NCBI GenBank assembly: GCA_016930215.1
Contig: JAFGHH010000322.1
Span: forward strand, 1 to 54,578
DNA from: Deltaproteobacteria bacterium
GTDB taxonomy: Bacteria > Myxococcota_A > Polyangia > DRWM01 > JAAZOP01
Direction: 5' to 3'
DNA length: 54,578 nucleotides
Part shown: positions 6,657-32,485 of the stretch, piece after piece
Numbering within the stretch: position 1 is the stretch's first letter
Layout: each line of letters opens with the position of its first letter
Notes under the pieces: model-generated
The model's database searches: none
Seen by the model: only the letters and a program-made list of their open reading frames with translations
What the model was told of the DNA's origin: nothing
Translations under genes and position numbers: made by a program

Positions 6657-6663
6657 GCCCTTC

Positions 6664-7956: not shown

Positions 7957-7975
7957 TCCCCGTGCCGGACGCGCG

Positions 7976-9808
7976 ATGCAGATCGACCTCGTTTTCCCCC
8001 CGTTCGACTACTCGGTTCTGGTGCCCGAGGTTGGCCTTCCGGTCCTGACGGCCAACCTGCGGCGTGGCGGCTTCGAGGTACGTCAGGCGGACTGGAATGT
8101 CGAGTTCCTCGTGCGGGAGTTGGGCCGGTTGTCCGGGCCGGCGCGGCTGGTCGAGCGTTTCCCGGCCGGGTCCGTGGAGGAGTGGCGGGAGGCCGCGGCG
8201 CAGCCGTCCCGGCTGCTGACCGCGATCGCCCGGGCGCTCGGATGGAACCCTGCACGGCCGGCCGGCCCGGGCCGGCCGGGGCGAAGCGGGGTGGACGATT
8301 CCGCGGCGGATCCCTTCGAGCCGATCCGGGTGATCGAGCGGCGGACGCAGAAGTCGTGCCACCTTCGTCCGCACCAGATCCTCGGGGACTGGCGCGAGGA
8401 GTTCGAGCGACTGCCTTCCAGATGGCGCGACCCGCGCGATTTCCGTTCCGTGGTGTTGGCCGGCCTGGCCCGCTGGGGAGCGCGGGATCCGGACTTTCGC
8501 GCGCGGCTGCTGCGCCTCCTGCAGCACCTGCACTTCGCGCCGGCGAGCTACCGGATGGAGGACCTCCTGGCCGCGGCCGACCGGCCCGATCCGCTGCTCG
8601 ACCCGTTCTACGCTGCACGGTTGGAGGCGTTGTTCGCCACGCGGACGCCGCGGATCTTCGGGATCGCCCTCTGGTCGCCGCTGCAGCTCGCCCCGGCGTT
8701 GCGTCTGGCCCGCAGCGTGCGGCGCCTGATCCCCGGAGCGATGCTGGTCGCCGGTGGGGCCTGGTGCAGCTATGCCGCTCCGCGGCTCGGCGCCGTGCCC
8801 GAGCTGTTCGACCGGTTCGACGCCGTGCTGCCGGGCGAGGCCGAGACGAGTTTCGTCGCGCTGGCCCGGGCCGCGACGGAGGGCCAGCCTGTCGCGGGGC
8901 TGCCCGGGGTGGTCGATCGGGAGGCCGCTCTTGCCGGTCGCACGTCCTCGCCGACCCCGCGACCGCTCGAGGCGATCGCCCTGCCCGAATACGACGATCT
9001 GCCGTTGGACCTGTATCCGGAGCGGAAGCTGATCCTGCGGCTCGCGCGCGGCTGCTACTGGGGCCGCTGCGCCGTCTGCTCCCACGTTCTCCCCGAGACG
9101 AACCGGCACCATGCCTCGCCGAAGGAGGCGCGGCTGACGAAGGGGCACCTGCGGGCCCTGGCCGGACACATCCGCCGGGTCGGCGAGCGGCACGGCATCC
9201 GGCAGTTCACGACGGCCGACAACCTGGTTTCGCCCGGCGTCATGCAGCAGCTCTGCGAGCTGAACCGACGCGAGGGCCTCGGCTTCACTTGGGACTCGCT
9301 GGCCCGGTTCCACCGCGAGTACGATCTGGAGTTCTGCCGGATGCTCGTCGCGGGCGGCTGCACGCGGCTCGACCTGGGCCTGGAGGTCGCCGACGACGCG
9401 GAGCTCCGGCGGATCCACAAGGGGCTGCAGCTCGAAACCGCGTTGCGCGGCCTCCGCAACCTCCACCGGGCCGGGGTCGGGGTGATGGTGTTCGTGCTCG
9501 ACTACCCGGGCCTGCCGCCGGAGGCGCTGGAGCGGACGCTGGAGTGGCTGGCGGAACACCGGGAGCTGGTGCCGGCGGTCTCGATCTCGCGCTTCCACCT
9601 CGCCTGCGGCACGCGGCCCTGGCGGGAGCCGGACGCCTTGGGGATCCGCCCGGTCCCCGGGCGGGACCGGGACCTCAACGTCTTCGACCTGGAGTACACC
9701 GCCGAGAGCGCGCTCGACGATGCGGCGTTCGCCGCCCTGGTCCGACGCCATGCCGATCGGCTGCCGCTGGGCGGCTTCGTCTATGGCGGCGAGGAGCGGG
9801 GAGAATGA
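7976..9808 (+). CDS. B12-binding-domain radical SAM protein with variant Cx4Cx2C motif
   Basis: 610-aa listed ORF starting at ATG 7976. The N-domain is MQIDLVFPPFDY... The cluster motif is LARGCYWGRCAVCSH. Its stop overlaps the next start (ATGA). Confidence 0.8.
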   Translation: MQIDLVFPPFDYSVLVPEVGLPVLTANLRRGGFEVRQADWNVEFLVRELGRLSGPARLVERFPAGSVEEWREAAAQPSRLLTAIARALGWNPARPAGPGRPGRSGVDDSAADPFEPIRVIERRTQKSCHLRPHQILGDWREEFERLPSRWRDPRDFRSVVLAGLARWGARDPDFRARLLRLLQHLHFAPASYRMEDLLAAADRPDPLLDPFYAARLEALFATRTPRIFGIALWSPLQLAPALRLARSVRRLIPGAMLVAGGAWCSYAAPRLGAVPELFDRFDAVLPGEAETSFVALARAATEGQPVAGLPGVVDREAALAGRTSSPTPRPLEAIALPEYDDLPLDLYPERKLILRLARGCYWGRCAVCSHVLPETNRHHASPKEARLTKGHLRALAGHIRRVGERHGIRQFTTADNLVSPGVMQQLCELNRREGLGFTWDSLARFHREYDLEFCRMLVAGGCTRLDLGLEVADDAELRRIHKGLQLETALRGLRNLHRAGVGVMVFVLDYPGLPPEALERTLEWLAEHRELVPAVSISRFHLACGTRPWREPDALGIRPVPGRDRDLNVFDLEYTAESALDDAAFAALVRRHADRLPLGGFVYGGEERGE

Positions 9809-10581
9809 GCATGGCTGCGACGAAGGACGGTCCGCATCGCCGGATCCCACGGTTACAGGTGGTCGTCGCCGGCACGGGCCGCGACGGGACGATGTCGCTG
9901 GCGCGCCTGATCGGCGACCTGGCGGCGGCGAACGGGCGCCGCTGGGTGTCGGAGCACGAGCTATACGCCGACCACGTCTGCAACCTGCTGAGCCGCTACC
10001 ACGAGACCGGCCTGGAGCTGCACCGCCGGGCGTTGCGCGACCTGCTGGCGCAGCTTCCGGCCCACGCCGTCGCCGGGACCACCTACCAGTTCGCCCTCGA
10101 TCTGCTCCTCGAACTCCACGGCCCCCGCCTGAAGCTGGTCCACCTCCGGCGGCGGGACCGCGCCGAGTGCATCCGTTCGTTGGCGCAGATCATCCACTGG
10201 CGCCCGGCGATGGCGATCCACATGACGAAGGAGGCGTGCCGCACGGACCTGCCGGAGTACACGCTGCGCCTGGCGGCGTTTCATTTCGGCGAGACGACCC
10301 ACGCCGCCTGGGAGCGCATGTCGCTCGATCAACGGCTCGGCTGGCACTTCGACAAGACCCACCGGCTGATCGAACGGGCCGCGCCGCGCTTCGGTGGCTA
10401 CCTGCAGCTCGACACGGAGGACCTCGACCGGCCCGCCACGGTGCGCCGGCTCGCCCGGTTCCTCGACCCTTCCTGGAAGCGGGTCTGTCCGGCGGTGCAC
10501 GTCAACTCGCGCGACGAGTGGCGCGAGCGCGGGGAGTTCAACGAGGCGGTCCGCCGCAAGATGCTCGCCCCGAGGAGTTGA
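9805..10581 (+). CDS. sulfotransferase-like P-loop protein (tentative)
   Basis: ATG 9805 is in an ATGA overlap with the upstream stop. I chose it inside the long listed ORF 6484..10581, whose upstream part is antisense to real genes. VVVAGTGRDGTMSLARL and LVHLRRRDRAECIRSL resemble sulfotransferase PAPS-binding motifs. Confidence 0.5.
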   Translation: MSMAATKDGPHRRIPRLQVVVAGTGRDGTMSLARLIGDLAAANGRRWVSEHELYADHVCNLLSRYHETGLELHRRALRDLLAQLPAHAVAGTTYQFALDLLLELHGPRLKLVHLRRRDRAECIRSLAQIIHWRPAMAIHMTKEACRTDLPEYTLRLAAFHFGETTHAAWERMSLDQRLGWHFDKTHRLIERAAPRFGGYLQLDTEDLDRPATVRRLARFLDPSWKRVCPAVHVNSRDEWRERGEFNEAVRRKMLAPRS

Positions 10582-10664
10582 GCGGCGCTCGAGCCGCCCG
10601 TCCGTCGCCTGTCGTCGCCTGTCGCCGCCTTGACACCCCGGAGGCGATCCCGCAGATTGGCCGC

Positions 10665-13571
10665 GTGCCCGGGAAGGCGCCCAAGGGCGGGGCGAAACGC
10701 CTGCTGCTCGTGGAGTTCGCGGCCACCGACCGCTTCCATCGCGCGCTGCTGTTCCCGTTCGTTCTCGGCTACGCGCGGTCCGCGGGCCGGCCCGCGCGCT
10801 GGCTCCGGTTCGGCGTTCCGGCGGCCGCTCCGGCGGGCGTCGAGGGCGGGGGGGTGCCGCTGCCGCGCGAGGACGAGGCGCGGCTGCGGGCGGCGGCCCG
10901 CGCGTTTCGTCCCGACCTCGTGCTGTTCAACATGACGCCGTCGCCCGGCGTGCGGCGCGCGGCCGCCGCGGCCGGTCGCACGGAGGAGGCCGTCCTGACC
11001 GACGGCGGGACCGGCGCGGCCGACACCGGGGACGTTCCGCAGCTCGACCTCGCCCGCACGTCGCTCGACGCGGTCCTCGGCCGGCGCGACGCCGCCGTGC
11101 AGGGCACGGGGCTGTTCCAGAACGTCGAGCCGCACTACGGGCTCGAGGCGGCGAACGAGGCGGCGGAGACGATGGACCCGCTGCCGTTCGTCTTCCTGGG
11201 CGAGGAGTGCACGTACAACCGGCCGTTCCGCGCGAGCGCCTTCCTGGCGGGGCTGACGTTCGAGGGGTGCTTCCGCAAGGGCGGGTGCTCCTTCTGCGGC
11301 CGGCCGGAGGCGGGCCGGTGGACGACGCCCCCGCCGGAGCTGCTGCGGCGCCAGCTCGCCGCGATCGACCGGACGCTGCCGGGGACGGAGGGCCGCGGGC
11401 TCCGGATCCGCCTGCTGGGCGAGGCGGCCCTGCGCCATGTCGGGGCCGTGGCGCGCGAGGCGCTGCGCTTCGGCCGGCGCCCGCTGGGCCTGCTGCTCGA
11501 CTCGCGGGTGGACCACTTCCTGGCCGCCGCCGAGCCGCTGCGGCGGGCGCTGCGCGCGCTCGACGGGTCCGGCGTGCGGCTCGAGCTGAGCCTTCTCGGG
11601 GCCGAGAGCTTCGGCACCGCGGCGCTCGACCGGCTGAACAAGGGGCTGCGGCCGGAGCAGACGCTGCGCGCGGTCCGGCTGCTGTTCGACCTGGAGCGCG
11701 AGTTTCCCGCCGGGTTCGGCTTCCGCGAGCACGGCGGGCTGAGCATGATCACGATGACGCCGTGGACGACGCCGGCCGAACTGGCGCTCGACCTGGCCGT
11801 CGTCGGGGCGCTCGGGCTCGAGGGGATCGTCGGCAAGCTGTTCACCGGTCGCCTGCGTCTCTTCCGCGGCCTGCCGCTGGTCGAGGCGGCCCGGCGCGAC
11901 GGGCTGCTCGTCCGCCGCTACGCCGACCCGCTGCTCGATACCGCGCGCCGCAACCTCTACGAGACGGAGATTCCGTGGCGCTTCGCGCGGCCGGAGATGG
12001 AGAGCCTCTGCCGCATCCTGGTCCGCCTCGACGCGGACGTCGCCGCGGCGTCCGACCCGCTCTCGCGCCGCGTGGCGAAGAAGAAGGGAACGCTCGGCCG
12101 CGGCGTGACCGCGCGCAGCGTCGCCGCGGCGCTCGCGATGACGGACGCCGCGATGCTCGCCGCGGCCTCGGGGAAGAGGCTCGCCCCCGCGGCGCTCCTG
12201 CGCGCGGCCGAGCATGGGACCGGAGCGGCGCGGACGTCCCGGGCGGCGAAGGCGTCCGCCCCGCCGCGGCACGAGGCGTGGGTGCGGCACGCGGAATGGC
12301 GCGGCGGCGCCGACGACCGCGGTCGGCTGCCGCTGCCGGTGCTGCTGGCGCACAAGCCGGCGATCAAGGTCGAGCCGCTCACCGCGACCGAGTGCGACCG
12401 TTTCCGGCGCGACCCGGAGCTGCCGAACGTACGGGCTCGCCGTCGAGGCAGCCGTGCGGGCGGCGAGGCGTGGGAGGTCTTCGTCGGGCGCCGATCGCGG
12501 GACGTCGCCGCCGCCGTGGAGCTGGCCGAGCGGATCGAGCGTGCGCGGCCCGGGCCCGAGCTGCGGGACGCCGTGACCCGGATGGGCATCGCGCTCGGTT
12601 ACCCGAAGTGCTGTGCGCGGGGTTTTTCCCAGGAACGGCCGCCGCTGGTGGACAACGTGTTCTGGCTCCACGTGGCGCGCCGCGTCGCCGTCCCCGGCCG
12701 CGTGCCGCCGGAAATGAACCCGCTCGCCCCGTGGCTCGAGTACGTCCCGTGCTCGGCGGCCTGCCGGGCCTCCGTCGCCCGGGCCCGCAGCATGATCCGC
12801 GCCTGGGGCGCCGAAGGCCGCCGGCAGCTCGAGCGGTGCCGCCATCCCGTGCTGTTGTTCCGCGAGGTGCAGGGCCAGGCGGTCGAGCTGGTGCCCCGCG
12901 ACGAGCCCGGCGAGCGGTTCCGCTACCGCGCCGGCGTCGTCGGCGGCTCCGGGCCGCTCGTCGAGGCGGTCTGCCGCGGCGACGAGCTGGTGCTGGAGGA
13001 CGAGCGGACGCTGGTGCTGCGGCGCGGCCGGCCGCTGATCGGCCTGTCGGCCCGGGCGTTCCTGTGGTGGCACGAACGGGCGCTGCAGGCGGAATTCTGG
13101 CGGGGAATGGTCGATGTGCTACGGGCGCGCGGTCCGGAACGTCGGCTGCCGGCGACGCCCGAGCCACGTGCGGAGACGCCGTTCACGCGGGACACCGCCG
13201 GGCTGCTCGGGAAGCTGCAGCGACGCCGGCCGCGCTTCGCCGGCTTCGCCCTGGACTCGTGGGGCACGACGGGCCCGGAGTGCGTCCGTGTGGTCCTCGT
13301 CGAGCGCGGCGACCGCGTGGAGCTCGATCTGTTCCCGCGCCGGCCCGGCGCGCCGGCCTTCCTGGAAGCGGGCGCGTTCCGGCTGACCTACCCGACCACG
13401 CATCCGCTCGATTCGCCCGCGCGGCTCGCCGCCGCGCGGGCCTTCGCCGCGGCCCTGGCCGGCGCGAAACTCGCCGACCATGACGACGACCACGTTGGGA
13501 GGCCTCGGATGCTGCCCGACGACGACCACGACCACGACGACGACCACGTTGGGGAAAGGGGGCGGCGGTGA
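10665..13571 (+). CDS. large multidomain protein: B12-binding-like + variant (Cx5Cx2C) radical-SAM-like + GYPxCC/PCS domain + His/Asp-rich tail
   Basis: GTG 10665 was chosen inside listed ORF 9720..13571, giving about 968 aa. Motifs are KRLLLVEFAATDRF..., EGCFRKGGCSFCGRPE, and a C-terminal ALGYPKCCARGF ... YVPCSAACRAS pair reminiscent of DUF483-type domains. The tail is HDDDHVGRPRMLPDDDHDHDDDHVGERGRR. The exact start is uncertain. Confidence 0.65.
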   Translation: MPGKAPKGGAKRLLLVEFAATDRFHRALLFPFVLGYARSAGRPARWLRFGVPAAAPAGVEGGGVPLPREDEARLRAAARAFRPDLVLFNMTPSPGVRRAAAAAGRTEEAVLTDGGTGAADTGDVPQLDLARTSLDAVLGRRDAAVQGTGLFQNVEPHYGLEAANEAAETMDPLPFVFLGEECTYNRPFRASAFLAGLTFEGCFRKGGCSFCGRPEAGRWTTPPPELLRRQLAAIDRTLPGTEGRGLRIRLLGEAALRHVGAVAREALRFGRRPLGLLLDSRVDHFLAAAEPLRRALRALDGSGVRLELSLLGAESFGTAALDRLNKGLRPEQTLRAVRLLFDLEREFPAGFGFREHGGLSMITMTPWTTPAELALDLAVVGALGLEGIVGKLFTGRLRLFRGLPLVEAARRDGLLVRRYADPLLDTARRNLYETEIPWRFARPEMESLCRILVRLDADVAAASDPLSRRVAKKKGTLGRGVTARSVAAALAMTDAAMLAAASGKRLAPAALLRAAEHGTGAARTSRAAKASAPPRHEAWVRHAEWRGGADDRGRLPLPVLLAHKPAIKVEPLTATECDRFRRDPELPNVRARRRGSRAGGEAWEVFVGRRSRDVAAAVELAERIERARPGPELRDAVTRMGIALGYPKCCARGFSQERPPLVDNVFWLHVARRVAVPGRVPPEMNPLAPWLEYVPCSAACRASVARARSMIRAWGAEGRRQLERCRHPVLLFREVQGQAVELVPRDEPGERFRYRAGVVGGSGPLVEAVCRGDELVLEDERTLVLRRGRPLIGLSARAFLWWHERALQAEFWRGMVDVLRARGPERRLPATPEPRAETPFTRDTAGLLGKLQRRRPRFAGFALDSWGTTGPECVRVVLVERGDRVELDLFPRRPGAPAFLEAGAFRLTYPTTHPLDSPARLAAARAFAAALAGAKLADHDDDHVGRPRMLPDDDHDHDDDHVGERGRR
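13488..13499 (+). repeat. GACCACGTTGGG motif, copy 1 (codes DHVG)
   Basis: Read directly from the sequence. It lies in the tail-coding region of 10665..13571. Confidence 0.9.
13542..13554 (+). repeat. GACCACGTTGGGG motif, copy 2 (codes DHVG)
   Basis: Read directly from the sequence. It uses the same Val codon (GTT), which looks uncommon here among the Val codons I translated (mostly GTG/GTC), as copy 1. Confidence 0.9.
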
Positions 13572-14920
13572 CCTTGCGCAGGCCCGCGCTCGACGTGGTG
13601 GCGGACGGCGGCGGGTGGGTTGCGCGGCTTGTGGAGGCGCTGCGGCAGGGCGGCGCGCCGCTCCGGTCCGCCTCGCTCCACGACGGCACGCTGCGCCTCG
13701 CGCTCGAACTGGAAGGCGGCCGGGCGTTCGTCGTCACGGCGCGGCCCTGGCGCGAGGGGCTGCAGGGATGGCGGCGCACCGAGCGGCTCCTCGTGGGTTA
13801 CGACGGAGCGGGGGACCCGGGACCGGACGGCGGCCGGTGGCTGGAGCGGATCCACGGCCTGCTCTCGCGTGGCGAAGGCTCGTTCCCGGAAGGGCTGGCG
13901 GGGTTCGCGGCGCTCGGGGCGCGGGGAGGGCGGCCCGAGGAGTCGCTGGCCGCGATGTTCCCGTTCGTCACCGTCGAGCGCTCCTCGCCGACGGCGGGGC
14001 GCGGCCGGCGTCCGCGTCCCGGGGAAGGGGTCGAGGTGCTGGTGCGGGCGACGTCGCGCTGCAACCAGGCCTGCCCGTTCTGCTCGGGGCCCAAGCACGC
14101 CGAGCCGAGCGGCGAGGTGCTCCGGGCCTGCTTCCGGGCCGTGGGAGAGCTGCTGCCCGGCGCGCTGGTGTCGCTGACCGGGGGCGAGCCGACGCTGCGG
14201 CGGGGCTTTCCCGGCGAGGTGCGCGCGGCGCTGGAGGCGCTGCCGCGCGGGGAGGTGCAGGTCCAGACGAATGCCGTCCGCTTCGCGACGGCGCTGGATC
14301 CGACCGACCTCCCGCGCGACCCGCGCCTCAAGTTCTTCGTCTCGCTGCACGCGCTGGACGAGGCGGCCTACGACCGGTGCACCGGCAGCCGCGGGCAGCT
14401 CGGCCAGGCGGTCGCCGGAACCCGACGACTGCTGGCGGCGGGGCACGCGGTGACGCTCAACGCGGTCGTATGCCGCGAGAACGTCGGGCACGTCGAGGCG
14501 TACGTGCGGCGGATGCCGCGGGCGTTCCCGGGCCTGCGGCGGCCCGTGTTGCACTTCTCGACGCTGATCTGTCCGGAGTGGAACCCGCGGGCCGCCCGGA
14601 GCCTGGTCCGCTACCGGGAGGTCGTCGAGGTCCTTCGTCGGGCGGCCCGCGTTGCGCGGGAGCTCGGATGGGAGATGCTGCCGCTGCGCTCCTCGACGCA
14701 CGCGACGATGCCGGCCTGCGTGTTGCGTCCTTCCGAGCGGCCGCGGCGGGCCGAGTACCGGGTCGGCGTGCGCGAGACCGGCTACGAGGACCTGTCCCGG
14801 CCGTTCGTGAAGGCGGCCCGCTGCCGCGGCTGTCGCGAGACGTCGCGCTGCCTCGGAGTCCCGCGCCCCTACGCCCTGGCCTTCGGCCTCGACGAGCTGC
14901 GGCCGATCCGGGGCGACTGA
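13568..14920 (+). CDS. radical SAM protein (Cx2Cx5C-tail paralog family)
   Basis: 450-aa listed ORF. GTG 13568 is in a GTGA overlap with the upstream stop. Motifs are VLVRATSRCNQACPFC, LTGGEPTL and a C-terminal CRGCRETSRC...GLDELRP. Confidence 0.8.
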   Translation: MTLRRPALDVVADGGGWVARLVEALRQGGAPLRSASLHDGTLRLALELEGGRAFVVTARPWREGLQGWRRTERLLVGYDGAGDPGPDGGRWLERIHGLLSRGEGSFPEGLAGFAALGARGGRPEESLAAMFPFVTVERSSPTAGRGRRPRPGEGVEVLVRATSRCNQACPFCSGPKHAEPSGEVLRACFRAVGELLPGALVSLTGGEPTLRRGFPGEVRAALEALPRGEVQVQTNAVRFATALDPTDLPRDPRLKFFVSLHALDEAAYDRCTGSRGQLGQAVAGTRRLLAAGHAVTLNAVVCRENVGHVEAYVRRMPRAFPGLRRPVLHFSTLICPEWNPRAARSLVRYREVVEVLRRAARVARELGWEMLPLRSSTHATMPACVLRPSERPRRAEYRVGVRETGYEDLSRPFVKAARCRGCRETSRCLGVPRPYALAFGLDELRPIRGD

Positions 14921-14983
14921 GGGCCTCCAACCGCGCCCAGGGTCACGTCGACGGAGGGCGGGCCGCGTGGTAGGGTTCGTGCG

Positions 14984-15814
14984 ATGAAGAAGCCTACGCC
15001 GCTGCGGGTTGCGATCTACGGAAAGGGGGGCATCGGGAAATCGGTCGTTGCGACGGGGCTCTCGGCCGTGCTGGCGAAGAGCGGGCGCAGGGTCCTGCAC
15101 GTCGGCTGCGACCCGAAGCACGACTCGGCGGTGCGGCTGCTGCCGCCCGGGGTCAAGCTGCGGACGGTGATGGAGGTGCTGGGCGACGCGCCGGGCGGCG
15201 GGGGGCAGGAGCCGATCATCCACGAGGGGCGGCTGGGGATCCACTGCTGCGAGTCGGGCGGTCCGTCGCCGGGGCTCGGGTGCGCCGGGCGCGGCGTGGC
15301 CCGCATGCTGGAGTACATGGAGGAGACCGGGTTGATGGAGCCCGGGCGCTACGACGCGATCGTGTTCGACGTGCTGGGGGACGTGGTGTGCGGCGGCTTT
15401 GCCGCGCCGTTGCGCCTCGGGTTCGCCGACCGCGTGGTGATCGTCACCTCCGAGGAGCCGATGGCGCTGTACGCGGCGAACAACATCTCCCGCGCGGTGC
15501 ACGCGTACCAGGACAACGGCGTGGTGCTGGCCGGTCTGGTGACCAACCTGCGGGGCCCCGACGCGCGGCGGGACAAGCTGCGCGAGTTCGCCCGGCGGCT
15601 ATCGACCAGCATCCTGGCGACGCTCGCGCGCGATCCGAAGATCCTGGAGAGCGAGCGTCGCCGGTGCACCGTCGTGGAACACGCCCCGAGCGGTCCGAGC
15701 AGCCGGGCGTTGCGCACCCTGGCCGGGGCGCTCGAGAAGCTGGACAAGCGCCGCTGCGTCCTCCCGACGCCGCTGGAGGACGAAGAGTTCTACAGGTTCA
15801 TGGACTCGTGGTAG
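14984..15814 (+). CDS. nitrogenase iron protein-like ATPase (NifH/BchL/CfbC family)
   Basis: 276-aa listed ORF. It has the P-loop IYGKGGIGKS, switch I CDPKHDS, and both [4Fe-4S] cysteine regions: ESGGPSPGLGCAGRGV and FDVLGDVVCGGFAAP. Confidence 0.9.
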   Translation: MKKPTPLRVAIYGKGGIGKSVVATGLSAVLAKSGRRVLHVGCDPKHDSAVRLLPPGVKLRTVMEVLGDAPGGGGQEPIIHEGRLGIHCCESGGPSPGLGCAGRGVARMLEYMEETGLMEPGRYDAIVFDVLGDVVCGGFAAPLRLGFADRVVIVTSEEPMALYAANNISRAVHAYQDNGVVLAGLVTNLRGPDARRDKLREFARRLSTSILATLARDPKILESERRRCTVVEHAPSGPSSRALRTLAGALEKLDKRRCVLPTPLEDEEFYRFMDSW

Positions 15815-17853
15815 CCACCCGCAAGACACCGGCTTCCCCCTCCGCACGGCTCGGCGGCCGCTGCGTCGCCGCCGGCGCCCGCACGCGCCTGCTGGTCGAG
15901 GAGCTGCTCGGGATCTCGGAGACCCGCGGGCGCTACCACCTGCGCACCGTGGCCTGGCTCGACCGCGCCCTGGAGGCCGGCGTCGTGGTGGACGACCGGG
16001 AGGTCGTGATCCGCATCGAGCGACGGACGGCGGACGCCGAGGGGCTGGTGACGACCCCCGAGCTGGTCGTGTACTACCGCGGCAAGGACCTGCCGGTCGA
16101 GCTGCTCGAGGCGATCCGGGCCCACGCGCCGAAACGGCTGCAGGGGAGGACGCTCGAGTCGCTGGAGGCGGCGGTCGCCGCGGACCCGGAGCTGGGGGCC
16201 TCGACGCTGGCGATGCCGCCGAGCGTCGACGAGGGCGACCGTCCGGGCTCGTTGCTGGATACCTGGGGCGGGGAGGACGCGTACGCCGACTTCTTCGCCG
16301 GCGGCGAGCTGGCGCGCGAGCAGCTCGACTCGCTCGACCCGGGCGTGCTGTTCACCTTCGTCCAGCACAGCGACTGCGAGTGCCTGCACGTGAACCCGCA
16401 CGGCATCGCGCCGATCGTCTGGCTGGTCAACCACCCGTGGGACAACCGCGTGCGGTACGGCGCCGCGGCGGGCGTGCGGCAGGACCTGGTCGCCGCGGCG
16501 GCCGAGGGGATGATGACGTCGGACCTCGACGAGGACGACGTGATCATGGGCAACGCGGGGAAGTTCCGCCGGCTGCTGGCGCAGGCCGAGCGGGTGTACC
16601 GGCGCGCCGGCAAGACGCTGTTCATCAGCAACACGTGCACGCCGGTGGTGAACGGCGAGGACGTCGAGTCGGAGGTGAACCGCTTCCGGGCGCGGAGCGG
16701 CTGTCCGCTGCTCTACCTCACCGTCACCCCGCGCTCGATGGTCAACGTGTTCGAGGACGTGCTCGTGACCCGGCGGCTCGCGGCGGAGCGGAAGGCGAAG
16801 GCCCCGCGGCCGCGCAGCGTGAACCTGATCGGCTTCCGCGAGGACCCCGCGTTGGACGAGTTGCGTGCGCTGCTGGCCTGCCTGGACGTGGAGGTCCGCG
16901 GCGTGCTGCTGCCCGAGCTGACGCTCGAGCGCGTCGACCGCCTGCCCGAGGCGGCCTGCAACGTGTTCCTGCCGAACCAGCTCTGGCAGCACCTGTACGA
17001 CCAGCTGGTCTCCGGCAGCCGCATCCCGCACCTGGACCCGCCCGCGCCGTACGGCTTCGCGGGGACGCTGGGGTGGCTCGAGGCGGTCGGCGGCCGGTTC
17101 GGCCTGTCGGCCAGGCGACGCCGGGCGCTCGAGGCCGCCGCGGCCGGCGTCCAGGCCCGGTTCGCGGAGCTGCAGACCGAGGTCGAAGGCCGGCGGCTCG
17201 GCTTCGTCGTGCGCTGCGACCAGACCTACTACCTCACGCGCCCGGCCGCCACGGCCGGCGTGCCGCTGGTGGCGATGCTCGAGGAGCTGGGCTTCAGGCT
17301 CGACGTCTTGCTCCAGGCGCGGGATCGCGAGACGGCGCGGCGGGCTGCCGAGGAGATCCAGGCGGTCTTCTCGCGGCCCGAGCGCCACCGCTTGAAGGCG
17401 TTCGATTCCCCGGAGGGGATGGCCCGACGGCTCGCGGAGAGCGAGGCGGAGGCGTTCTTCAGCTCGCACTTCTTCGACTGGCGCATCACCGGCGCGGGGA
17501 AGAACCTGTTCTCGCTGCAGCACTTCGAGGCGGGGCTGCGGGGCGCCGTGCGGACCGCGGAGCGGCTGCTGGGCATCTGCCGGACCCCGTTCTACCGACG
17601 CTTCCGCGGCCAGCTGCAGCGCACGCCCGAAGGGCTGCGCCGCGCAACCGTTTCCCCGGGGGGGACCGCCTGGTCGCACGTCGGGCCGGAGACCGGATGC
17701 GGCCGCCGGGGCGACCGCTGCGTCCCCCCCGGACCCCCCGCGCATCGTCTCGGGCAAAGCCCTCGACGACGCGCCACTGGCTCGCCAACGTCGCGGGGAG
17801 GCGGTGAACGGCTACTGCGCCGCGAGCCGCCGGGGAAGAGGGGGACGCCGTGA
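15808..17853 (+). CDS. nitrogenase component-1-like subunit (NifD/NifE/BchN-like) with N- and C-terminal extensions
   Basis: GTG 15808 (7-nt overlap with the NifH-like stop) was chosen inside listed ORF 15280..17853. TSDLDEDDVIMGNAGKF and FISNTCTPVVNGEDVE resemble the xLxExDxVFGG and CPxGLIGDD regions of NifD/E-type subunits, from memory. There is an N-terminal extension of about 200 aa and an Arg/Gly/Pro-rich tail of about 80 aa. Confidence 0.7.
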   Translation: MVATRKTPASPSARLGGRCVAAGARTRLLVEELLGISETRGRYHLRTVAWLDRALEAGVVVDDREVVIRIERRTADAEGLVTTPELVVYYRGKDLPVELLEAIRAHAPKRLQGRTLESLEAAVAADPELGASTLAMPPSVDEGDRPGSLLDTWGGEDAYADFFAGGELAREQLDSLDPGVLFTFVQHSDCECLHVNPHGIAPIVWLVNHPWDNRVRYGAAAGVRQDLVAAAAEGMMTSDLDEDDVIMGNAGKFRRLLAQAERVYRRAGKTLFISNTCTPVVNGEDVESEVNRFRARSGCPLLYLTVTPRSMVNVFEDVLVTRRLAAERKAKAPRPRSVNLIGFREDPALDELRALLACLDVEVRGVLLPELTLERVDRLPEAACNVFLPNQLWQHLYDQLVSGSRIPHLDPPAPYGFAGTLGWLEAVGGRFGLSARRRRALEAAAAGVQARFAELQTEVEGRRLGFVVRCDQTYYLTRPAATAGVPLVAMLEELGFRLDVLLQARDRETARRAAEEIQAVFSRPERHRLKAFDSPEGMARRLAESEAEAFFSSHFFDWRITGAGKNLFSLQHFEAGLRGAVRTAERLLGICRTPFYRRFRGQLQRTPEGLRRATVSPGGTAWSHVGPETGCGRRGDRCVPPGPPAHRLGQSPRRRATGSPTSRGGGERLLRREPPGKRGTP

Positions 17854-19238
17854 CGGCCGGGAGCGAGCGGCAGCGCCGTTTGCTGGAGCGGCTGGTCGCG
17901 CGGCTGGAGGCCGACGCCGGGGAAGAGGACTTCTCCATGCGCGTCGCCTACCCCTACCTGCTCGGCGTGTACCTCGGGGTCAACGCCGTGCGGGACGCCT
18001 TCCTCGTCGTGGAGGGCCCCGACTGCAGCTACATGAAGACGCAGTACATCCAGGGCAACCACGACTGGCTGTCCACGCTGACCTCGGTCGCGGGTTACCA
18101 CCGGGTGGCGAACACCGCGCTCCACCCCTCGATGATGACTGCCTCGCGCGAGGAGCCGGTGCGCGCGCTGCTGCGCCGCGTGGCCTCGCGCCCGGCGACG
18201 GGCGGCACGCTGCTCACGACGATGCCGATGGCCGCGATCACCGGCGCGGACTACGACCGGCTGTGCCGCGAGGTCGCCCGCGAGACGCGGAAGGACGTGG
18301 CGCACGTCCCCGGCCGCTCGCTGTCCGGCGACTGGCTCGACGGCTACGACCGCACGCTGTACGCGTTGGCGCGGCAGCTCGATCTGTCCGGCGGCCGGCC
18401 CCGGCCGCGGAAGGTCGCGATCGTCGGCTACCTCCACGACCGCAATGAGGCCGACCACAGCGCCAACCTGCGCGTGCTCCGGGAGATGTGCGAGGCGGTC
18501 GGCCTCGAGCTGACCGGGGTCTGGTTGTCGGGCGGGAGCTGGGCGGGTTTGCGCGGTGTCGGCGACGCCGCGACGATCCTGTCGCTGCCCTACGGCCGCG
18601 CGGCGGCGCGGGAGGTGGCGCGTCGGACGGGCGCCGAGGTCGTCGAGCTGCCGCTGCCGTTCGGCCTGCGGGCCTGCGAGGAGTGGATGCGGGTGCTCGG
18701 CGAGCGTTTCGGCGCCGTCGACCGGGCCCGGGCCTACGTGGATCGCATGCTGGCCGACATCGGGCCGCGGCTGGAGTGGCTGATCCCGTTCCTGTTCCAG
18801 AACCGCGAGGTGGGATATGTCGGCGACCCGCACCTCGTGCCCGGCTTCCGCGACATCGTCGAGCTGCTCGGGGCGCGTCTGCGGTTCGCCGTGCTGACCA
18901 ACCGCCCGGCGCACGCCGGCCTCGCGCGGCCGGCGCTCGAGGGGGTCGCCGGGCTGCCGTGGCCGAAGCTGAAGGCCTTCGTCCACTTCCTGTGCCGGCA
19001 GCTGCTGGACGGGGAGCTGCACCTCCTGGTCGCGAACAACTACGGCATGAGCGTCCCGCTGCCGGACGCCGCGGTGGTCGAGTTCGGCTTCCCGTCGGTC
19101 TACACCCACGCGCTGTACGACCGGCCCTTTTTCGGGTATCCGGGATTCCTGGCGTTCGTCGATACGCTGGCCAACGCGTTGCGCCAGAACGAGCTTGCCC
19201 GCGCGCGGGCGGCGACGCTGGAGGCCGGGGAGTCCTGA
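17850..19238 (+). CDS. nitrogenase component-1-like subunit (NifK/NifN/BchB-like)
   Basis: 462-aa listed ORF. GTG 17850 is in a GTGA overlap. FLVVEGPDCSYMKTQYIQ carries the single conserved Cys region. LLTTMPMAAITGADYD stands where NifK has a TTC...IGDD motif. Rossmann-like segments are KVAIVGYL and EVGYVGDPH. Confidence 0.65.
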   Translation: MTAGSERQRRLLERLVARLEADAGEEDFSMRVAYPYLLGVYLGVNAVRDAFLVVEGPDCSYMKTQYIQGNHDWLSTLTSVAGYHRVANTALHPSMMTASREEPVRALLRRVASRPATGGTLLTTMPMAAITGADYDRLCREVARETRKDVAHVPGRSLSGDWLDGYDRTLYALARQLDLSGGRPRPRKVAIVGYLHDRNEADHSANLRVLREMCEAVGLELTGVWLSGGSWAGLRGVGDAATILSLPYGRAAAREVARRTGAEVVELPLPFGLRACEEWMRVLGERFGAVDRARAYVDRMLADIGPRLEWLIPFLFQNREVGYVGDPHLVPGFRDIVELLGARLRFAVLTNRPAHAGLARPALEGVAGLPWPKLKAFVHFLCRQLLDGELHLLVANNYGMSVPLPDAAVVEFGFPSVYTHALYDRPFFGYPGFLAFVDTLANALRQNELARARAATLEAGES

Positions 19239-20599
19239 TGGCCGGCGGCTCGACGCGCCTGCTGGACGACCTGCGCCGGGCCCTGGAGGTCGCGGCCGGA
19301 AGCTCCGGATGGTCCGTCGGCAGGCCGGTCCTCGCCGACCGCCTCCGCGTGCCGGTCTCCCGGCCGGCCGGTGCCCGCCCGGCGCTCGAGCTCGTGGTCG
19401 AGCAGCGGAGTCCGGCCGCGGCGACCGGCGGCTACGCCGAGGTGGGCGGCTTCCGGTTGTTCTACGCGGCCCCGCGGAACGCGCCGCTCCCGCCGTCCGA
19501 CTCCGTCCCCGTCGCGACGCTGATGGACGCGCTGGTCCGGTGGCTGCGCACTTCCGAGAACGCTCTTGCCGCGCTGTGGACCGTCCGACGGAAGCGCGGG
19601 CGGGGGGGCGGCGGCGCCGCGCCACGCGGCCGGTCGGACCCCCGGACGTCGCGCGTCCTGGAGCCGGGATACGGGCTCGAGCGCGAGCAGATCCTCCGTG
19701 TCGAGTTCCGCTGCAACCAGCGCTGTCCGTTCTGCTTCGTCCGGATCCGGCCCCATCGGCCGGAGTGGGAGACGATCCGGAGGGCCCTCGACCGGGCCAC
19801 GGGCGACCGGCCCGGGGCGAACATCGTCCTCTCCGGGGGCGAGCCGACGTTGCACCCGGAGCTGCTGGAGCTGGTGGCGCGGATCCGCGCGCGCCGGCCG
19901 CGGCGCCTGGTGCTGCAGACCAACGCGGTCCGGCTGGCCGACGCCGGCTTCGCGGACCGGCTGCACGCCGCGGGCGTCCTCATCCACTTCGTCTCGCTGC
20001 ACTCGCACCGCGAGGAGACCTACGACCGGATCACGCGGACGTCGGGGCAGTTCCCGAAGGCGATCCGGGGCATTCGGAACCTGCTCGCCTACGCCGACGC
20101 GGCCGTCACGCTGAACATCCTGGTGAACCGGCTGAACGTCCGCTCGCTGTCCGGGTACGTCCGGTTCGTGGGCCGGTTGCGCGGGGCGGACGGCCGGCCG
20201 CCCGGCCTGTTCTTCACGGTGATGAACGACGTGGGCCTGGCCCGGGCTCCCGAGCTGGCGGTCCCGCTGGAGACGGTTGCGCCTGCGCTGGCTCGCGCCG
20301 TCGCGCTCTGCGCGGAACTGGGCATCCGAGTGGACCCGTTCACCGGCGAGTGCGCGCCGCCGCTCTGCGTGCTGCGGGACCCGGCGCCCTACGCGCGGAA
20401 GTCCGAGGACGGGTTCCGCGGGGCGCTCTACGTCGAGCCCGGCGCGGAGTTCGCGCCGCACCGGCGGGTGAAGCGGGTCGAGTGCCGGACGTGCCGGTAC
20501 GACGCGGTGTGCGTGGGGGTCAGCGGCGCCTACGCGCGACGGTTCGGACTGGAGGCGCTGAAGCCGTTCCGCGGCCCCCGGCTGTCGCTCCACGATTGA
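19238..20599 (+). CDS. radical SAM protein (Cx2Cx5C-tail family), paralog of 13568..14920
   Basis: ATG 19238 shares one base with the upstream TGA and was chosen inside listed ORF 18488..20599. Motifs are LRVEFRCNQRCPFC, LSGGEPTLHPEL and a C-terminal CRTCRYDAVC...GLEALKP. Confidence 0.8.
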   Translation: MAGGSTRLLDDLRRALEVAAGSSGWSVGRPVLADRLRVPVSRPAGARPALELVVEQRSPAAATGGYAEVGGFRLFYAAPRNAPLPPSDSVPVATLMDALVRWLRTSENALAALWTVRRKRGRGGGGAAPRGRSDPRTSRVLEPGYGLEREQILRVEFRCNQRCPFCFVRIRPHRPEWETIRRALDRATGDRPGANIVLSGGEPTLHPELLELVARIRARRPRRLVLQTNAVRLADAGFADRLHAAGVLIHFVSLHSHREETYDRITRTSGQFPKAIRGIRNLLAYADAAVTLNILVNRLNVRSLSGYVRFVGRLRGADGRPPGLFFTVMNDVGLARAPELAVPLETVAPALARAVALCAELGIRVDPFTGECAPPLCVLRDPAPYARKSEDGFRGALYVEPGAEFAPHRRVKRVECRTCRYDAVCVGVSGAYARRFGLEALKPFRGPRLSLHD

Positions 20600-20631
20600 C
20601 ACCCCCCGCCGCGCGGGTTCACCGTTCCGGC

Positions 20632-22320
20632 GTGGACCACGACGACGCACCGGCGGCCGGGTCCGAGTCGCCGTTGGCCCGTGCCCGGTCGCTCGAGAAC
20701 TCCAGCCGCCCCGCCGAGGCCGAGGCGGCTGTGCGCCCGCTCGCGGCCCGCGCCGCCCGCGTGCTGCCCCGGCTGCTCGCGCGGCTCGTCCGGGAGGCGT
20801 CGGGCGAGGGCGAGGCGCCGCGCTCGCGGTACTGGACGCTGCTCGAGTTCGACCCTTTCCGGCGCGCGTTCCTGGCGCGACTGGCGCGACGGCCGGCCGA
20901 CCTGGGGCGCGTCGCCTCGGCGATGCGCGCCGCGCTCGACGGTGATCCCGCCCGCAACGCCGTGCGGACGCTGCTTGGGGACGTCCTCTTGGTGCAGGGA
21001 AAACAGGCGGCGGCCGAGCGGCTCGCGAAGGACGCGTTCCGGCGCGGCCGGACGGGCGGGGAGGACTCCCGCTTCCGGCTGCTGCTGCGGCTCGTGGATC
21101 GCGGCCGGTACGGCCGGGCGCTGGAGCGGTCCGTGCTGGCGCGGCTGTGGGAGGCGTCGCCGTCGGACCGGCTCCTCGTCGAGTGGTCGCAGTTCTACTC
21201 GGCCCTGATGTGCACCGGTCGCTACCGGGCCGCGTTCCGCGTGGCCGAGGCGGTGCTGGACAAGCTTGGGCGGTTCGAGTCGTTGTTGCCGCTGCAGTGG
21301 CCGTGGTGGCGGAGGGTCGGCCGGGCGGTGAACGAGGAGCGCTTCCTCGCGCGCGAGCTGCAGCGGCTTCGGGCCGCCTCGCGCTCGGGCCGCTTCCCCC
21401 ACTGGTTCGCCTACTATCGCGCGGTGCTGTCGGGCCAGCTCGGTCGCCTGCGCGAGGCGCTGGCGGAGTTTCCGCGCCTGGCGCGCCTCGCACCGAACCG
21501 CTACTCGTGGATGCGCCAGGCGTTCGTCCCCGTGCACCTCGAGCGGCTCGACTTCCGGGGCGTGATCGCCGCCTGCCGCGCCGTCCTGCGGCACGCGCCG
21601 GACCAGTGGTGGGTGCGGTGCCGGATGGCGGAGGCGTACTTGGCGCTGGGCGACCACGCGGAGGCGTTGCGCCAGCTCCGGCGGGCCCGGGCCGGAGCCG
21701 ACCCGCGGGTGGTGCGGGAGGTCCTGACCTGGCACGGCGAGGTGCTGCTGTGGCTGGGGCGGTACCGGGCGGCCCTGCGTCTCCTCGACCGTGCGATCCG
21801 GCTCGGCGCCACGACCTTCGTCTACGGCTGGCGCGGCGCCGCTCGGCTGAAGCTCGGGGACGCCGAAGGCGCGCTGGAGGATCTCGACCGTGCGATCGAG
21901 TTGGACGCGAAGGACATCGAGGCGTACGTGTGGCGGGGCGAGGCGCACCGGCTCGCGGGTCGGTACGCCGCGGCGCTCCGCGACCTGGATCGCTTCCTCG
22001 AGTCCCAGCCGGATTGCTGCTGGGGCCTGTTCAACCGTGGCCTGGTGCGGGCCGAGCTGGGCGACGACGCCGGCCTGGCCGCGGATCTCGCCGCCGTTCC
22101 GCGGGGGGTGGATCTCGCCGTCCGGCGCAGGCTGGACCTCCCCGACGACCGGGCGTTGACGGCGGCGGAGCAGCGTGCCCTGGCGACCGCCGCGCTGGAG
22201 TTGGGCCGGGGCATCCGGCGGTGGGAACCGTACCTGTATCCTATCTGGCTGGGTCGCGACGGACGCCCCGTGGAGCGCGACGCGAGACGACGGGCGCGCC
22301 GCGGCGCAGGCGGTCCTTGA
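20632..22320 (+). CDS. TPR-repeat protein
   Basis: GTG 20632 was chosen inside listed ORF 19195..22320; the start is uncertain. The C-terminal half has repeated TPR-like helices: AEAYLALGDHAEALRQLRRA, GRYRAALRLLDRAIRL, GDAEGALEDLDRAIELD and GRYAAALRDLDRFLES. Confidence 0.65.
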   Translation: MDHDDAPAAGSESPLARARSLENSSRPAEAEAAVRPLAARAARVLPRLLARLVREASGEGEAPRSRYWTLLEFDPFRRAFLARLARRPADLGRVASAMRAALDGDPARNAVRTLLGDVLLVQGKQAAAERLAKDAFRRGRTGGEDSRFRLLLRLVDRGRYGRALERSVLARLWEASPSDRLLVEWSQFYSALMCTGRYRAAFRVAEAVLDKLGRFESLLPLQWPWWRRVGRAVNEERFLARELQRLRAASRSGRFPHWFAYYRAVLSGQLGRLREALAEFPRLARLAPNRYSWMRQAFVPVHLERLDFRGVIAACRAVLRHAPDQWWVRCRMAEAYLALGDHAEALRQLRRARAGADPRVVREVLTWHGEVLLWLGRYRAALRLLDRAIRLGATTFVYGWRGAARLKLGDAEGALEDLDRAIELDAKDIEAYVWRGEAHRLAGRYAAALRDLDRFLESQPDCCWGLFNRGLVRAELGDDAGLAADLAAVPRGVDLAVRRRLDLPDDRALTAAEQRALATAALELGRGIRRWEPYLYPIWLGRDGRPVERDARRRARRGAGGP

Positions 22321-31729: not shown

Positions 31730-31926
31730 GGCTCCACCATCAGGCAGGACAGGGCGTAGTTGGAGAATTCGTCGAGCAGCCGATCGCGGACCGCGGGGTC
31801 GATGGCGGAGAATCGGACCGTCCACCGGCGTCCCTCGCGGCGCGTCTCGATTTCGGCCAGGTGGGCGAACGCCTGCCGGGTCCGGTCGAGCGCCGACTCG
31901 GAGTAGACGGCGGTGTCCAGGTGCAG
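31726..31926 (-). CDS. HxsD-like small ORF lacking a canonical start (CTG start, or degenerate duplicate)
   Basis: A coding-like frame reads VLHLDTAVYSESALDRTRQAFAHLAEIETRREGRRWTVRFSAIDPAVRDRLLDEFSNYALSCLMVEP and ends in an ATGA overlap with the next gene. There is no in-frame ATG, GTG or TTG between the upstream stop (31946) and this segment, only CTG at 31926 and 31920. Confidence 0.3.
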   Translation of the reverse strand: MHLDTAVYSESALDRTRQAFAHLAEIETRREGRRWTVRFSAIDPAVRDRLLDEFSNYALSCLMVEP

Positions 31927-31945
31927 GACGGCGGGAGCCGATCGG

Positions 31946-32404: not shown

Positions 32405-32456
32405 GGAGTCGGCACCTTCCGGCGGGCGGCGGCGAAGGCGCCGCCCCCGCCGATGG

Positions 32457-32485
32457 AAACTGTCACGCACCCCCGGGGGTGTCAA
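32457..32485 (-). promoter_or_regulatory. putative promoter (TTGACA-N17-CAGTTT) overlapping a perfect 14-nt palindrome CACCCCCGGGGGTG (32468..32481)
   Basis: Read on the minus strand about 50 nt upstream of ATG 32404. The -10 hexamer is weak, keeping only the A2 and T6 consensus positions. Confidence 0.25.

Follow-up and report, generated by a model that had tools for sequence, protein, structure and literature searches.

Group VI is the one clade of the nitrogenase superfamily that has no characterised member (PMC13474568). Its NFL systems were described from Elusimicrobia, Gracilibacteria and aquatic Myxococcales metagenome-assembled genomes (MAGs), where the nitrogenase paralogs lie amid suites of radical S-adenosylmethionine (radical SAM, rSAM) genes (Méheust et al. 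2020, ISME J; 10.1101/765248). A 2026 review in Chem Rev treats the group as uncharacterised, without NifB and the ligands of the FeMo-cofactor (FeMo-co), and with at most four P-cluster cysteines (PMC13474568); the published functional proposal is a tetrapyrrole-derived cofactor pathway (Méheust et al. 2020; PMC13474568). Here we describe a probable system of this kind on a contig of Deltaproteobacteria bacterium (assembly GCA_016930215.1, JAFGHH010000322.1), analysed over its 54,578 nucleotides, which we call the window. The genes for three nitrogenase-like proteins, NflH, NflD and NflK, are bracketed there by two rSAM genes, rSAM1 and rSAM2. A first-pass annotation of the sequence had considered this arrangement unusual, a view overtaken by the publication in 2020 of nitrogenase paralogs amid rSAM genes as Group VI NFL (Myxococcales, Elusimicrobia, Gracilibacteria). 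The kind of system is thus already known, and what is new is evidence for a coupled rSAM-reductase machine.

The best explanation of the locus as a whole, to which we assign a probability of about 55%, is a Group VI NFL core in which the NflHDK reductase works with the rSAM enzymes as one assembly on one substrate. Gene fusions, a domain shared by rSAM enzymes and reductase, and synteny form three independent lines of evidence for a physical assembly, and together they point to a putative ATP-driven reductase physically coupled to rSAM tailoring enzymes. The homology of this domain between rSAM enzymes and NflD, its recurrence on other enzymes of the cluster, and an NflK-rSAM fusion appear to be new; neither the shared domain nor the fusion nor an HxsB/HxsD module, all described below, is mentioned in Méheust et al. 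2020 (10.1101/765248) or in the review (PMC13474568).

Judged by residue-level and gene-context features, the locus matches Group VI in every feature compared. NflH aligns full length to NifH structures and, like the NifH paralogs of that group, retains the P-loop (GKGGIGKS) and both bridging cysteines, Cys100 (Cys97 of Av NifH) and Cys136 (Av Cys132). It scores below every NCBIfam equivalog cutoff (nifH, 258 against 394 bits; CfbC, 254 against 402; BchL, 182 against 345). By its sequence, NflH carries every feature of an ATP-hydrolysing [4Fe-4S] electron donor. Also as in Group VI, the window has an rSAM suite, with at least three B12-binding members among 12, and no NifB match. Nothing known contradicts membership. 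The tetrapyrrole proposal finds little support in the window. A related cluster in an Elusimicrobiota MAG (L002), found through an rSAM2 homolog, encodes NflD and NflK proteins 31% and 42% identical to those of the window, together with HxsC4-like rSAMs, a TP_methylase, a double rSAM and a HemN-like rSAM.

Residues ~1-150 of NflD form an N-terminal domain, and the nitrogenase-component-1 fold begins at about residue 150; the best solved-structure matches include MarD-type chains and NifE. Of its cysteines, C192 and C277 alone are invariant across 31 aligned homologs. The latter lies within SNTCvPvvtGEDVES and aligns to the cluster cysteine of NifE in NTCVPALIGDDV (NTCVP). Cys250 of NifE, in the motif MVCSK, is the counterpart of the cofactor-binding Cys275 of NifD, and it aligns to llPNq (Pro/Asn) in NflD; the protein thus lacks a cysteine at this FeMo-co ligand position, again as in Group VI. 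The position of NifD His442 was not resolved by the alignment. Before its last nine residues, NflD of the window has an insertion of ~60 aa (residues ~612-672, about 17641-17850) that is of low complexity, rich in Pro, Gly and Arg, weak in coding signal and lineage-specific; L001, the closest relative, does not have it. This stretch is a disordered linker or else was inserted recently. The real NflD of L001 has 621 aa. A 682-aa NflD in L001, a 1089-aa NflD in L020 and large negative intergenic gaps were discarded as artefacts of ORF extension across a stop codon.

No protein of the system is more conserved than NflK (mean column identity, 62%), which has 328 homologs, mostly from Myxococcota MAGs. 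Its solved-structure matches are NifK, VnfK, NifN and MarK-type chains. Its sole invariant cysteine, Cys59, lies in the motif EGPDC (26 homologs). The N-terminal region gave no meaningful match to solved nitrogenase-family chains, and because it could not be aligned, Cys59 corresponds to NifK Cys70 and NifN Cys44 by position only. The component-1 scores of NflD and NflK fall far below the Nif cutoffs, as do the scores against all Nif, Bch and Cfb equivalog models. On these sequence comparisons the two proteins are homologs of component 1 that have diverged strongly and lack the M-cluster cysteine. Their three invariant cysteines, all in the N-terminal halves and fewer than the four P-cluster-type cysteines that Group VI has at most, together with the lack of an M-cluster site, suggest that the subunit interface holds a simple [4Fe-4S] cluster, DPOR- or NifEN-like, in which one ligand is not a cysteine. 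The two-component ATP-dependent reductases DPOR (BchLNB), COR (BchXYZ) and CfbCD likewise combine a NifH-like donor, carrying equivalents of Cys97 and Cys132, with a simple inter-subunit Fe-S cluster and no M-cluster. The window differs from them in its equivalog scores, far below cutoff, in the extra ~150-aa N-terminal domain of NflD and in its coupling to rSAM enzymes.

The bracketing rSAM enzymes belong to a different part of their superfamily from NifB. rSAM1 consists of an alpha+beta N-terminal domain of ~140 aa (about 13568-13990), a CxxxCxxC core and a C-terminal four-Cys auxiliary site. Its family, of which more than 120 full-length cluster representatives were collected, none with an informative name, has invariant cysteines for the SAM cluster (C165/C169/C172) and for one auxiliary cluster (C384/C419/C422/C428). 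rSAM2 has the same architecture with a diverged copy of the N-terminal domain. That the two are paralogous, as previously noted, is borne out by BLAST (38% identity over 318 aa, E 2e-36), in a match confined to the core and C-terminus; the relationship of the N-terminal domains shows only in profile comparison. Two proteins encoded on the minus strand at higher coordinates, the 451-aa rSAM and, in its C-terminal half, the double rSAM, are further paralogs of both. The next relatives of rSAM2, P0004 and P0005 (430 aa), lie outside Nfl clusters. They and a set of ~600-aa Polyangia rSAMs come from unrelated contexts and were rejected as evidence on the system.

Searched against the PDB, the rSAM1 family profile retrieved SkfB first (1.5e-14), followed by GDGT-MAS, PqqE, MoaA, BlsE, YydG and viperin, and no NifB at E<=0.01; nor did any NCBIfam NifB family match rSAM1 at that threshold. 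With an AlphaFold 2 (AF2) model of rSAM1 (pLDDT 89.9) as query, Foldseek placed SkfB at the top and NifB far lower (26th and 38th), with a TM score of ~0.38, as for any rSAM barrel. SuiB is also among the nearest solved relatives. In NCBIfam, rSAM1 scores 62 bits against HxsC (TIGR03977; cutoff, 268), and rSAM2 scores 71 bits against the same model and 90 bits against HxsC4 (NF038332; cutoff, 500). Since these are best matches below cutoff, the flanking enzymes are HxsC-like and not members of those families. Family, PDB profile and structure searches show that they are SkfB/HxsC-like enzymes with one auxiliary cluster, and thus agree with the first-pass annotation, which had doubted that they were NifB and had named alignment as the check. 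Their nearest relatives are peptide- and small-molecule-tailoring enzymes. Like SkfB, SuiB, CteB and PqqE/PqqD, they carry an accessory domain ahead of the rSAM barrel and an auxiliary cluster at the C-terminus; they differ in that their N-terminal domain has a beta-alpha-beta4-alpha order, unlike the winged helix of the recognition element (RRE) of ribosomally synthesized and post-translationally modified peptide (RiPP) enzymes.

The first-pass annotation had put the N-terminal domains of the two rSAM enzymes down as of unknown type. They instead represent one recurring domain, which is also present in NflD and other enzymes of the cluster. In hhalign, the N-terminal region of the rSAM1 family matched the first ~150 aa of NflD with a probability of 95.7% (E 8.6e-9, 60 columns), and that of rSAM2 matched that of rSAM1 with 87.8% (E 3.3e-6). 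When a hidden Markov model (HMM) of the rSAM1 domain was run on the six-frame ORFs of the window, only four matches fell below an E value of 0.02: rSAM1 itself, rSAM2 and NflD by their N-termini (3.9e-4 and 1.8e-3, respectively) and, by its C-terminus, the 997-aa protein encoded immediately upstream (0.013). The next match had an E value of 0.54. In the 997-aa protein the domain covers aa ~904-948, and a counterpart in L035 matched at E 7.7e-4. In related loci the same HMM places the domain N-terminally in 26 NflD proteins and in twitch-type rSAMs, and C-terminally in B12-rSAMs; two rSAMs from the Elusimicrobiota cluster carry it as well. A confident AF2 model of the domain alone (pLDDT 88) gave the fold mentioned above. 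No Pfam or NCBIfam family matched the domain, and only 71 of 1.84 billion representative proteins carried it at E<=1e-3, nearly all of them rSAM1-type enzymes or fusions thereof. Profile comparison thus identifies a single homologous and very rare alpha+beta domain of ~100 aa in rSAM1, rSAM2, NflD and the 997-aa protein. Matches to multi-repeat proteins (P0385, P0396) fell in Big_2 Ig-like repeats and were set aside as spurious beta-strand similarity.

Conservation of the gene order was surveyed in 40 loci, collected with an NflK alignment as seed and one genome per GTDB species, onto which 25 window proteins were mapped; all are from MAGs of Myxococcota, Bradymonadales or Oligoflexales. NflD and NflK are adjacent in every locus, as expected from an NflK-seeded search. 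A full-length rSAM1-type (J-type) gene including the N-terminal domain occurs in 25 of the 40, and in 22 species-level loci it lies directly next to NflH-D-K or NflD-K, either ahead of it (rSAM1-type, H, D, K; 9/40) or behind it ((H-)D-K, rSAM1-type; 13/40), with junctions of -7 to +80 nt; in the second order most are overlaps of 1-8 nt or gaps of some tens of nt. Look-ups seeded with the rSAM1 family gave a mixed picture: one locus with D-K followed by an rSAM1-type gene, one (L046) with the rSAM and a 997-aa-like protein where Nfl genes are missing within 6 kb, and one uninformative contig. A bracket of HxsC-like rSAMs on both sides was found in four loci only, counting the window (the others are L001, L005 and L038), and orthologs of rSAM2 only in L001 (64% identity) and P0002 (85%); L004, whose NflK is 84% identical to that of the window, has other content in the rSAM2 slot. 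From these counts, the conserved unit consists of four genes, an rSAM1-type gene and NflH-D-K in either order, and rSAM2 is a lineage-specific duplicate, perhaps a recent one that fills an alternative slot after NflK. The five-gene core proposed earlier therefore holds for the rSAM1-NflH-D-K module and fails for its fifth gene, and the search for the five-gene order in other genomes had a correspondingly limited return: the strict bracket is a lineage-specific elaboration of the conserved four-gene module. One of the bracketed loci, L038 (Guaymas MAG B64_G9, 3099-13761), has two complete tandem Nfl sets, rSAM-H-D-K followed by rSAM'-D'-H'-K'. In a sub-type made up of L006, L008, L009, L011, L012, L013, L041 and L042, NflD-NflK is flanked by B12-rSAMs with no NflH or rSAM1-type gene within 10 kb; some of these B12-rSAMs carry the shared domain at their C-terminus.

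Fusions tie the reductase more directly to the rSAM enzyme. In L031 (4513-7356, +) and in an independent representative, P0379, a single protein of 947-948 aa consists of NflK (52% identical to that of the window), a Gly/Pro/Glu-rich linker, the shared domain and an rSAM1-type enzyme, in that order. In the Elusimicrobiota locus NflH and NflD are fused. Where the rSAM1-type gene follows H-D-K, it often appears fused to a twitch-type rSAM, which in the window is a separate gene; apparent fusions of this kind occur in L014, L018, L020, L022 and L027 (811-1019 aa) and in P0366, P0374, P0378 and P0381. The first-pass annotation had argued for co-expression and a physical complex from overlapping gene junctions. 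The adjacency of rSAM1-type and Nfl genes, the NflK-rSAM fusion and the homologous N-terminal domain on rSAMs and NflD support co-expression and a physical or functional complex more strongly than the overlaps alone allow.

In the mechanism that we propose, NflH would use ATP to push low-potential electrons through an inter-subunit [4Fe-4S] cluster of the DPOR/NifEN kind in NflDK, and NflDK and the rSAM enzymes would form one assembly that acts on a single substrate. Recruitment would fall to the shared domain, whose binding partner would be a common substrate or carrier, or else the other enzymes. The rSAM enzymes would perform radical C-H chemistry, and NflHDK would carry out the ATP-coupled reduction of the substrate or of an intermediate generated by the radical step.

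As to the nature of the substrate, we lean, with less confidence, toward a peptide- or protein-derived one matured in an HXS-like manner, rather than a free tetrapyrrole. HxsA is the protein that HxsB, HxsC and HxsD mature in the HXS system, where HxsC also binds to HxsD (Nat Commun 2026, PMC13128918). Our lean is based on the above-cutoff HxsB and HxsD_rel genes of the cluster and their canonical D-B-C order as in HXS, on the HxsC- and SkfB-like character of the flanking rSAMs, on the SPASM and RiPP-type B12-rSAM signatures in the cluster, and on the presence of a recruitment domain on many enzymes, which is typical of pathways with macromolecular or carrier-bound substrates. Since the 87-aa HxsD-related protein scores above the NF038315 cutoff, the cluster has two tandem HxsD-type genes. 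That gene, which simple ORF filters missed, has a GTG start and a strong ribosome-binding site (GGAGGAG), shares 44 nt with the 3' end of the gene for the 174-aa HxsD-like protein and ends in a stop codon that overlaps the HxsB ATG (ATGA). Homologs of HxsB occur in L005, L013, L033 and L036, and homologs of the HxsD-like protein in L013, L032, L033 and L036. The module also departs from the antiphage HXS system: it has no HxsA, its HxsC-like proteins are far below cutoff and have extra domains, its HxsD falls just short of cutoff, and the window shows no sign of a defence role.

Several observations weigh against this reading. No ORF with HxS repeats or His-rich repeats was found by regular-expression search of the six frames of the window, no leader peptidase or substrate gene was found, and clustering of the unmatched ORFs of 42 related loci gave no conserved small ORF (no family in >8 loci). 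The shared domain has no significant PDB match in Foldseek, the best being a KA1 domain (E 4.6e-3); an RRE or PqqD-like identity is ruled out by its fold, with no RRE found by Foldseek, and so is a fused HxsD (hhalign probability <1%; no NCBIfam match). Since it is neither an RRE nor related to HxsD nor matched in the PDB, its binding role is purely something that we infer. NflD Cys192 and NflK Cys59 can be equated with P-cluster positions by their place in the sequence only, not by alignment. About 10 loci have NflD-K and other rSAMs with no NflH or J-type rSAM within 10 kb, and L046 has a J-type rSAM and a 997-aa-like protein with no Nfl gene within 6 kb. Finally, the characterised NFL enzymes with a simple [4Fe-4S] cluster, DPOR, COR and CfbCD, act on tetrapyrroles, and the cluster includes two CobW/HypB-like GTPases and a gene of the TP_methylase fold whose product shares 48% identity with its Elusimicrobiota counterpart.

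These last points belong to the published proposal for Group VI, in which NflHDK would reduce a C=C bond of a porphyrinoid, the rSAMs, B12-rSAMs and TP_methylase would tailor the macrocycle, and the CobW/HypB-like GTPases would deliver metal. The low cysteine count, like the [4Fe-4S] arrangement of DPOR and NifEN, would suit it, as would the HemN-like rSAM of the Elusimicrobiota cluster and the weak resemblance of the ABC ATPase to CcmA. The TP_methylase is nevertheless nearest to RsmI, and far below cutoff, with no match to the CobA, CysG or Cbi families; the window has no chelatase, uroporphyrinogen, HemN_C or tetrapyrrole-synthesis genes. Its B12-binding domains point to a cofactor rather than a substrate, its HxsB, HxsD_rel and HxsC-like genes belong to a protein-maturation system, and a recruitment domain common to many enzymes would be unusual in a pathway for free small molecules. 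On balance we regard a tetrapyrrole pathway as doubtful, though it deserves serious attention. It is improbable that NflH and NflDK act instead as a dedicated reductive activase, which would leave the pathway substrate itself alone and pass very low-potential electrons, by way of an N-domain interface formed by docking or fusion, to the [4Fe-4S] clusters in the rSAM enzymes. The NflK-rSAM fusion, the occurrence of the shared domain in NflD and in at least five families of rSAM, the 12 rSAM domains of the cluster, all of which need reduction, and its ferredoxin-domain protein would fit such an electron pump. A review describes NFL-related ATP-driven activation chemistry (PMC13474568), a sign of how versatile ATP-coupled electron delivery is in this superfamily. 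Against it, the conservation of NflK and its invariant polar residues (QGNHD, EGPDC) fit a defined active site better than a relay, NflH alone would suffice as donor, the idea is without precedent, and the ~10 loci just mentioned keep NflD-K with no NflH nearby. A more novel reading, in which a dedicated docking domain, or in some lineages a covalent fusion, builds the NFL reductase into an rSAM assembly line where it either reduces a ribosomal peptide or protein substrate or serves as electron pump for the rSAMs, is one that we put forward only tentatively.

Readings closer to nitrogen fixation fare worse. The first-pass annotation had seen in the gene set the minimal logic of FeMo-cofactor maturation, according to which NifB-like rSAMs would build or insert a complex metallocluster on a NifEN-like NflDK with NflH as maturation ATPase. 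The order of the genes is indeed analogous to nifB-nifH-nifEN, NifB homologs adjoin the Group IV systems, and NifE is among the best solved-structure matches of NflD. Like NifB-NifH-NifEN and the Group IV systems NfaBHDK, MarBHDK and IsrBHDK, the window has an rSAM gene beside nifH-, nifD- and nifK-like genes; it differs in that its rSAMs are not NifB homologs and the cofactor cysteine is absent. The rSAMs have a single auxiliary four-Cys motif, where NifB has K1 and K2 sites, and no NifX domain; NifB was absent from the NCBIfam (E<=0.01) and PDB profile searches and its fold match is generic; NflD has Pro/Asn at the position of NifE Cys250 and NifD Cys275, with only three invariant cysteines in the N-terminal halves of NflD and NflK; and, according to the review, neither NifB nor the FeMo-co ligands are found in Group VI organisms (PMC13474568). 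A NifB- or FeMo-co-like role is thus very unlikely. The system almost certainly does not fix nitrogen, and the chance that it is a genuine, unusual N2-fixing nitrogenase is negligible. For the latter speaks the fact that NflH is about equally similar to NifH and CfbC. The component-1 scores, the missing M-cluster cysteine, the presence of at most three of six P-cluster-type cysteines, and the lack of nifB, nifE, nifN and nifV in the window all speak against it, so that neither the full set of P- and M-cluster ligands nor the equivalog scores of Nif, Vnf or Anf are found.

At a window GC content of ~74%, raw ORF lists are swamped by spurious frames, and genes were for that reason called from codon-position GC and a codon model trained on obvious genes, with start codons chosen with the help of homolog alignments. 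All five ORFs of the first-pass annotation were recovered on the + strand with a coding pattern of GC at the third codon position, their Pfam families agree with the earlier assignment, and the motifs quoted for rSAM1 (RCNQACPFC, CRGCRETSRC, GLDELRP) and rSAM2 (RCNQRCPFC, CRTCRYDAVC, GLEALKP) are present in the translations. The junctions also read as described. GTGA occurs at both 13568 and 17850, positions 14921-14983 form a gap of 63 nt, and the other two junctions are overlaps, of 7 nt at 15808-15814 and of 1 nt (TGATG) at 19238. Further overlaps (ATGA at 9805, TTGA at 10578 and TTGA at 20596) carry the coupling past these genes in both directions, which places the five within a nine-gene + strand unit, 7976..22320 (Table 1). 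A consensus scan found no promoter or terminator signals inside this unit above shuffled expectation.

Table 1. Genes of the rSAM-rich cluster in the window
Feature	Coordinates	Strand	Length	Basis and remarks
B12-rSAM	2-970	-		cut by window end
Unassigned protein				335 aa	upstream cluster gene
B12-rSAM	2206-3750	+		
Protein with 2x[4Fe-4S] ferredoxin domain	3859-4953	-		
Twitch-type rSAM	4950-6656	-		fused to J-type rSAM in other loci
rSAM-SPASM protein	6664-7842	-		
B12-binding radical SAM, first gene of + strand unit	7976..9808	+		best NCBIfam match TIGR03975 (RiPP rSAM C-methyltransferase), 94 bits, below cutoff
Protein with weak sulfotransferase-like match	9805..10581	+	258 aa	PF17784, E 1.2e-3, below cutoff
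997-aa protein	10578..13571	+	997 aa	divergent B12-rSAM-like core; translationally coupled to rSAM1
rSAM1	13568..14920	+	450 aa	ORF; Pfam Radical_SAM
NflH	14984..15814	+	276 aa	Pfam PF00142 Fer4_NifH, E 5e-75
NflD	15808..17853	+	681 aa	Pfam Oxidored_nitro, E 1.5e-24
NflK	17850..19238	+	462 aa	Pfam PF00148 Oxidored_nitro, E 1.1e-37
rSAM2	19238..20599	+	453 aa	ORF; Pfam Radical_SAM
TPR-repeat protein, last gene of unit	20596..22320	+		start uncertain (20596 or 20632); conserved in L001
ABC-type ATPase	22241-23068	-		best, weak match heme exporter CcmA
CobW/HypB-like GTPase	23047-23685	-		39% identical to its paralog; flanks 451-aa rSAM
Radical SAM, third rSAM1/rSAM2 paralog	23673..25028	-	451 aa	different N-terminal region
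CobW/HypB-like GTPase	25056-25718	-		39% identical to its paralog; flanks 451-aa rSAM
TP_methylase-fold SAM methyltransferase	27058..27900	-		PF00590, E 7e-16; best NCBIfam match RsmI, far below cutoff
Double radical SAM	27825..30059	-		C-terminal half HxsC4 119.6 bits, HxsC 80 bits, below cutoffs
HxsB-family radical SAM/SPASM maturase	30143..31729	-		TIGR03978, 482 bits (cutoff 370), E 1.7e-144
HxsD-related protein	31726..31989	-	87 aa	NF038315, 62.3 bits (cutoff 41)
HxsD-like protein	31946..32470	-	174 aa	TIGR03976, 44.9 bits (cutoff 50), E 1e-11, full model

The unit is part of an rSAM-rich cluster that extends from position 1 to about 33.6 kb and encodes 12 rSAM-type domains in 11 proteins: three B12-binding enzymes, one SPASM and one twitch-type enzyme, HxsB, the OxsB-like 997-aa protein, the N-terminal half of the double rSAM, and four HxsC-like paralogs, among them the C-terminal half of that same double rSAM. 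The 997-aa protein has only weak similarities, to the B12-rSAM OxsB (E 0.045) and to DUF483. Its invariant cysteines are C211, C237xxC240, the pair 678/679 in GYPxCC, and C725/C729, and it may be a non-canonical rSAM or another metalloprotein. A homolog adjoins the J-type rSAM in L001, L035 and L046. The His/Asp-rich tail of the protein (…DHDDDHVGRPRMLPDDDHDHDDDHVGERGRR; 13400-13571) has a metal-binding look and is confined to the window and the L001 lineage; it was considered as an HxsA-like precursor and rejected, as it is not conserved. Intergenic ORFs of the window were otherwise unconvincing, apart from the 87-aa HxsD_rel gene.

On the opposite strand, residues ~1-140 of the 451-aa rSAM look by eye like a winged helix-turn-helix (…LARLEPKVVPAALDELRSHGLIERG…), with no family match. 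The GTPases on either side of it and the ABC-type ATPase beside them, near which there is no permease gene, hint at metal delivery. Two predicted exported proteins without family matches are encoded on the - strand: a lipoprotein-like one of 388 aa with a Cys-rich C-terminal half, conserved only in L001 (25851-27017), and a Gly/Asn-rich, beta-helix-like one of 364 aa (32510-33604). Next to the cluster, between 33703 and 37302, lie a PAS-PAS-PAS histidine kinase/receiver hybrid (-) and a divergent receiver-HD-domain protein (36139-37302, +), which are possible regulators of the cluster. The region from ~47000 to 54578 (+) is prophage-like, with a GC content of about 0.70-0.72 and excisionase-like, replication initiator O-like, DnaC-like loader and baseplate-hub-like genes. 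No tRNA gene was found in the window.

Gene context has so far given Group VI only a vague guess at tetrapyrrole chemistry, and the coupling described here offers a route to function. It provides three handles on the group, namely the module of a J-type rSAM with NflH-D-K, a rare ~100-aa domain, and a natural NflK-rSAM fusion, and from these a physical rSAM-reductase complex is predicted. Were the substrate to prove a tetrapyrrole, a new cofactor pathway would be defined. Should it instead be a peptide or protein, or should the reductase feed electrons to the rSAM enzymes, this would widen the chemistry known for nitrogenase homologs, and the peptide- or protein-substrate reading, if true, would make this the first NFL enzyme in peptide or protein maturation.

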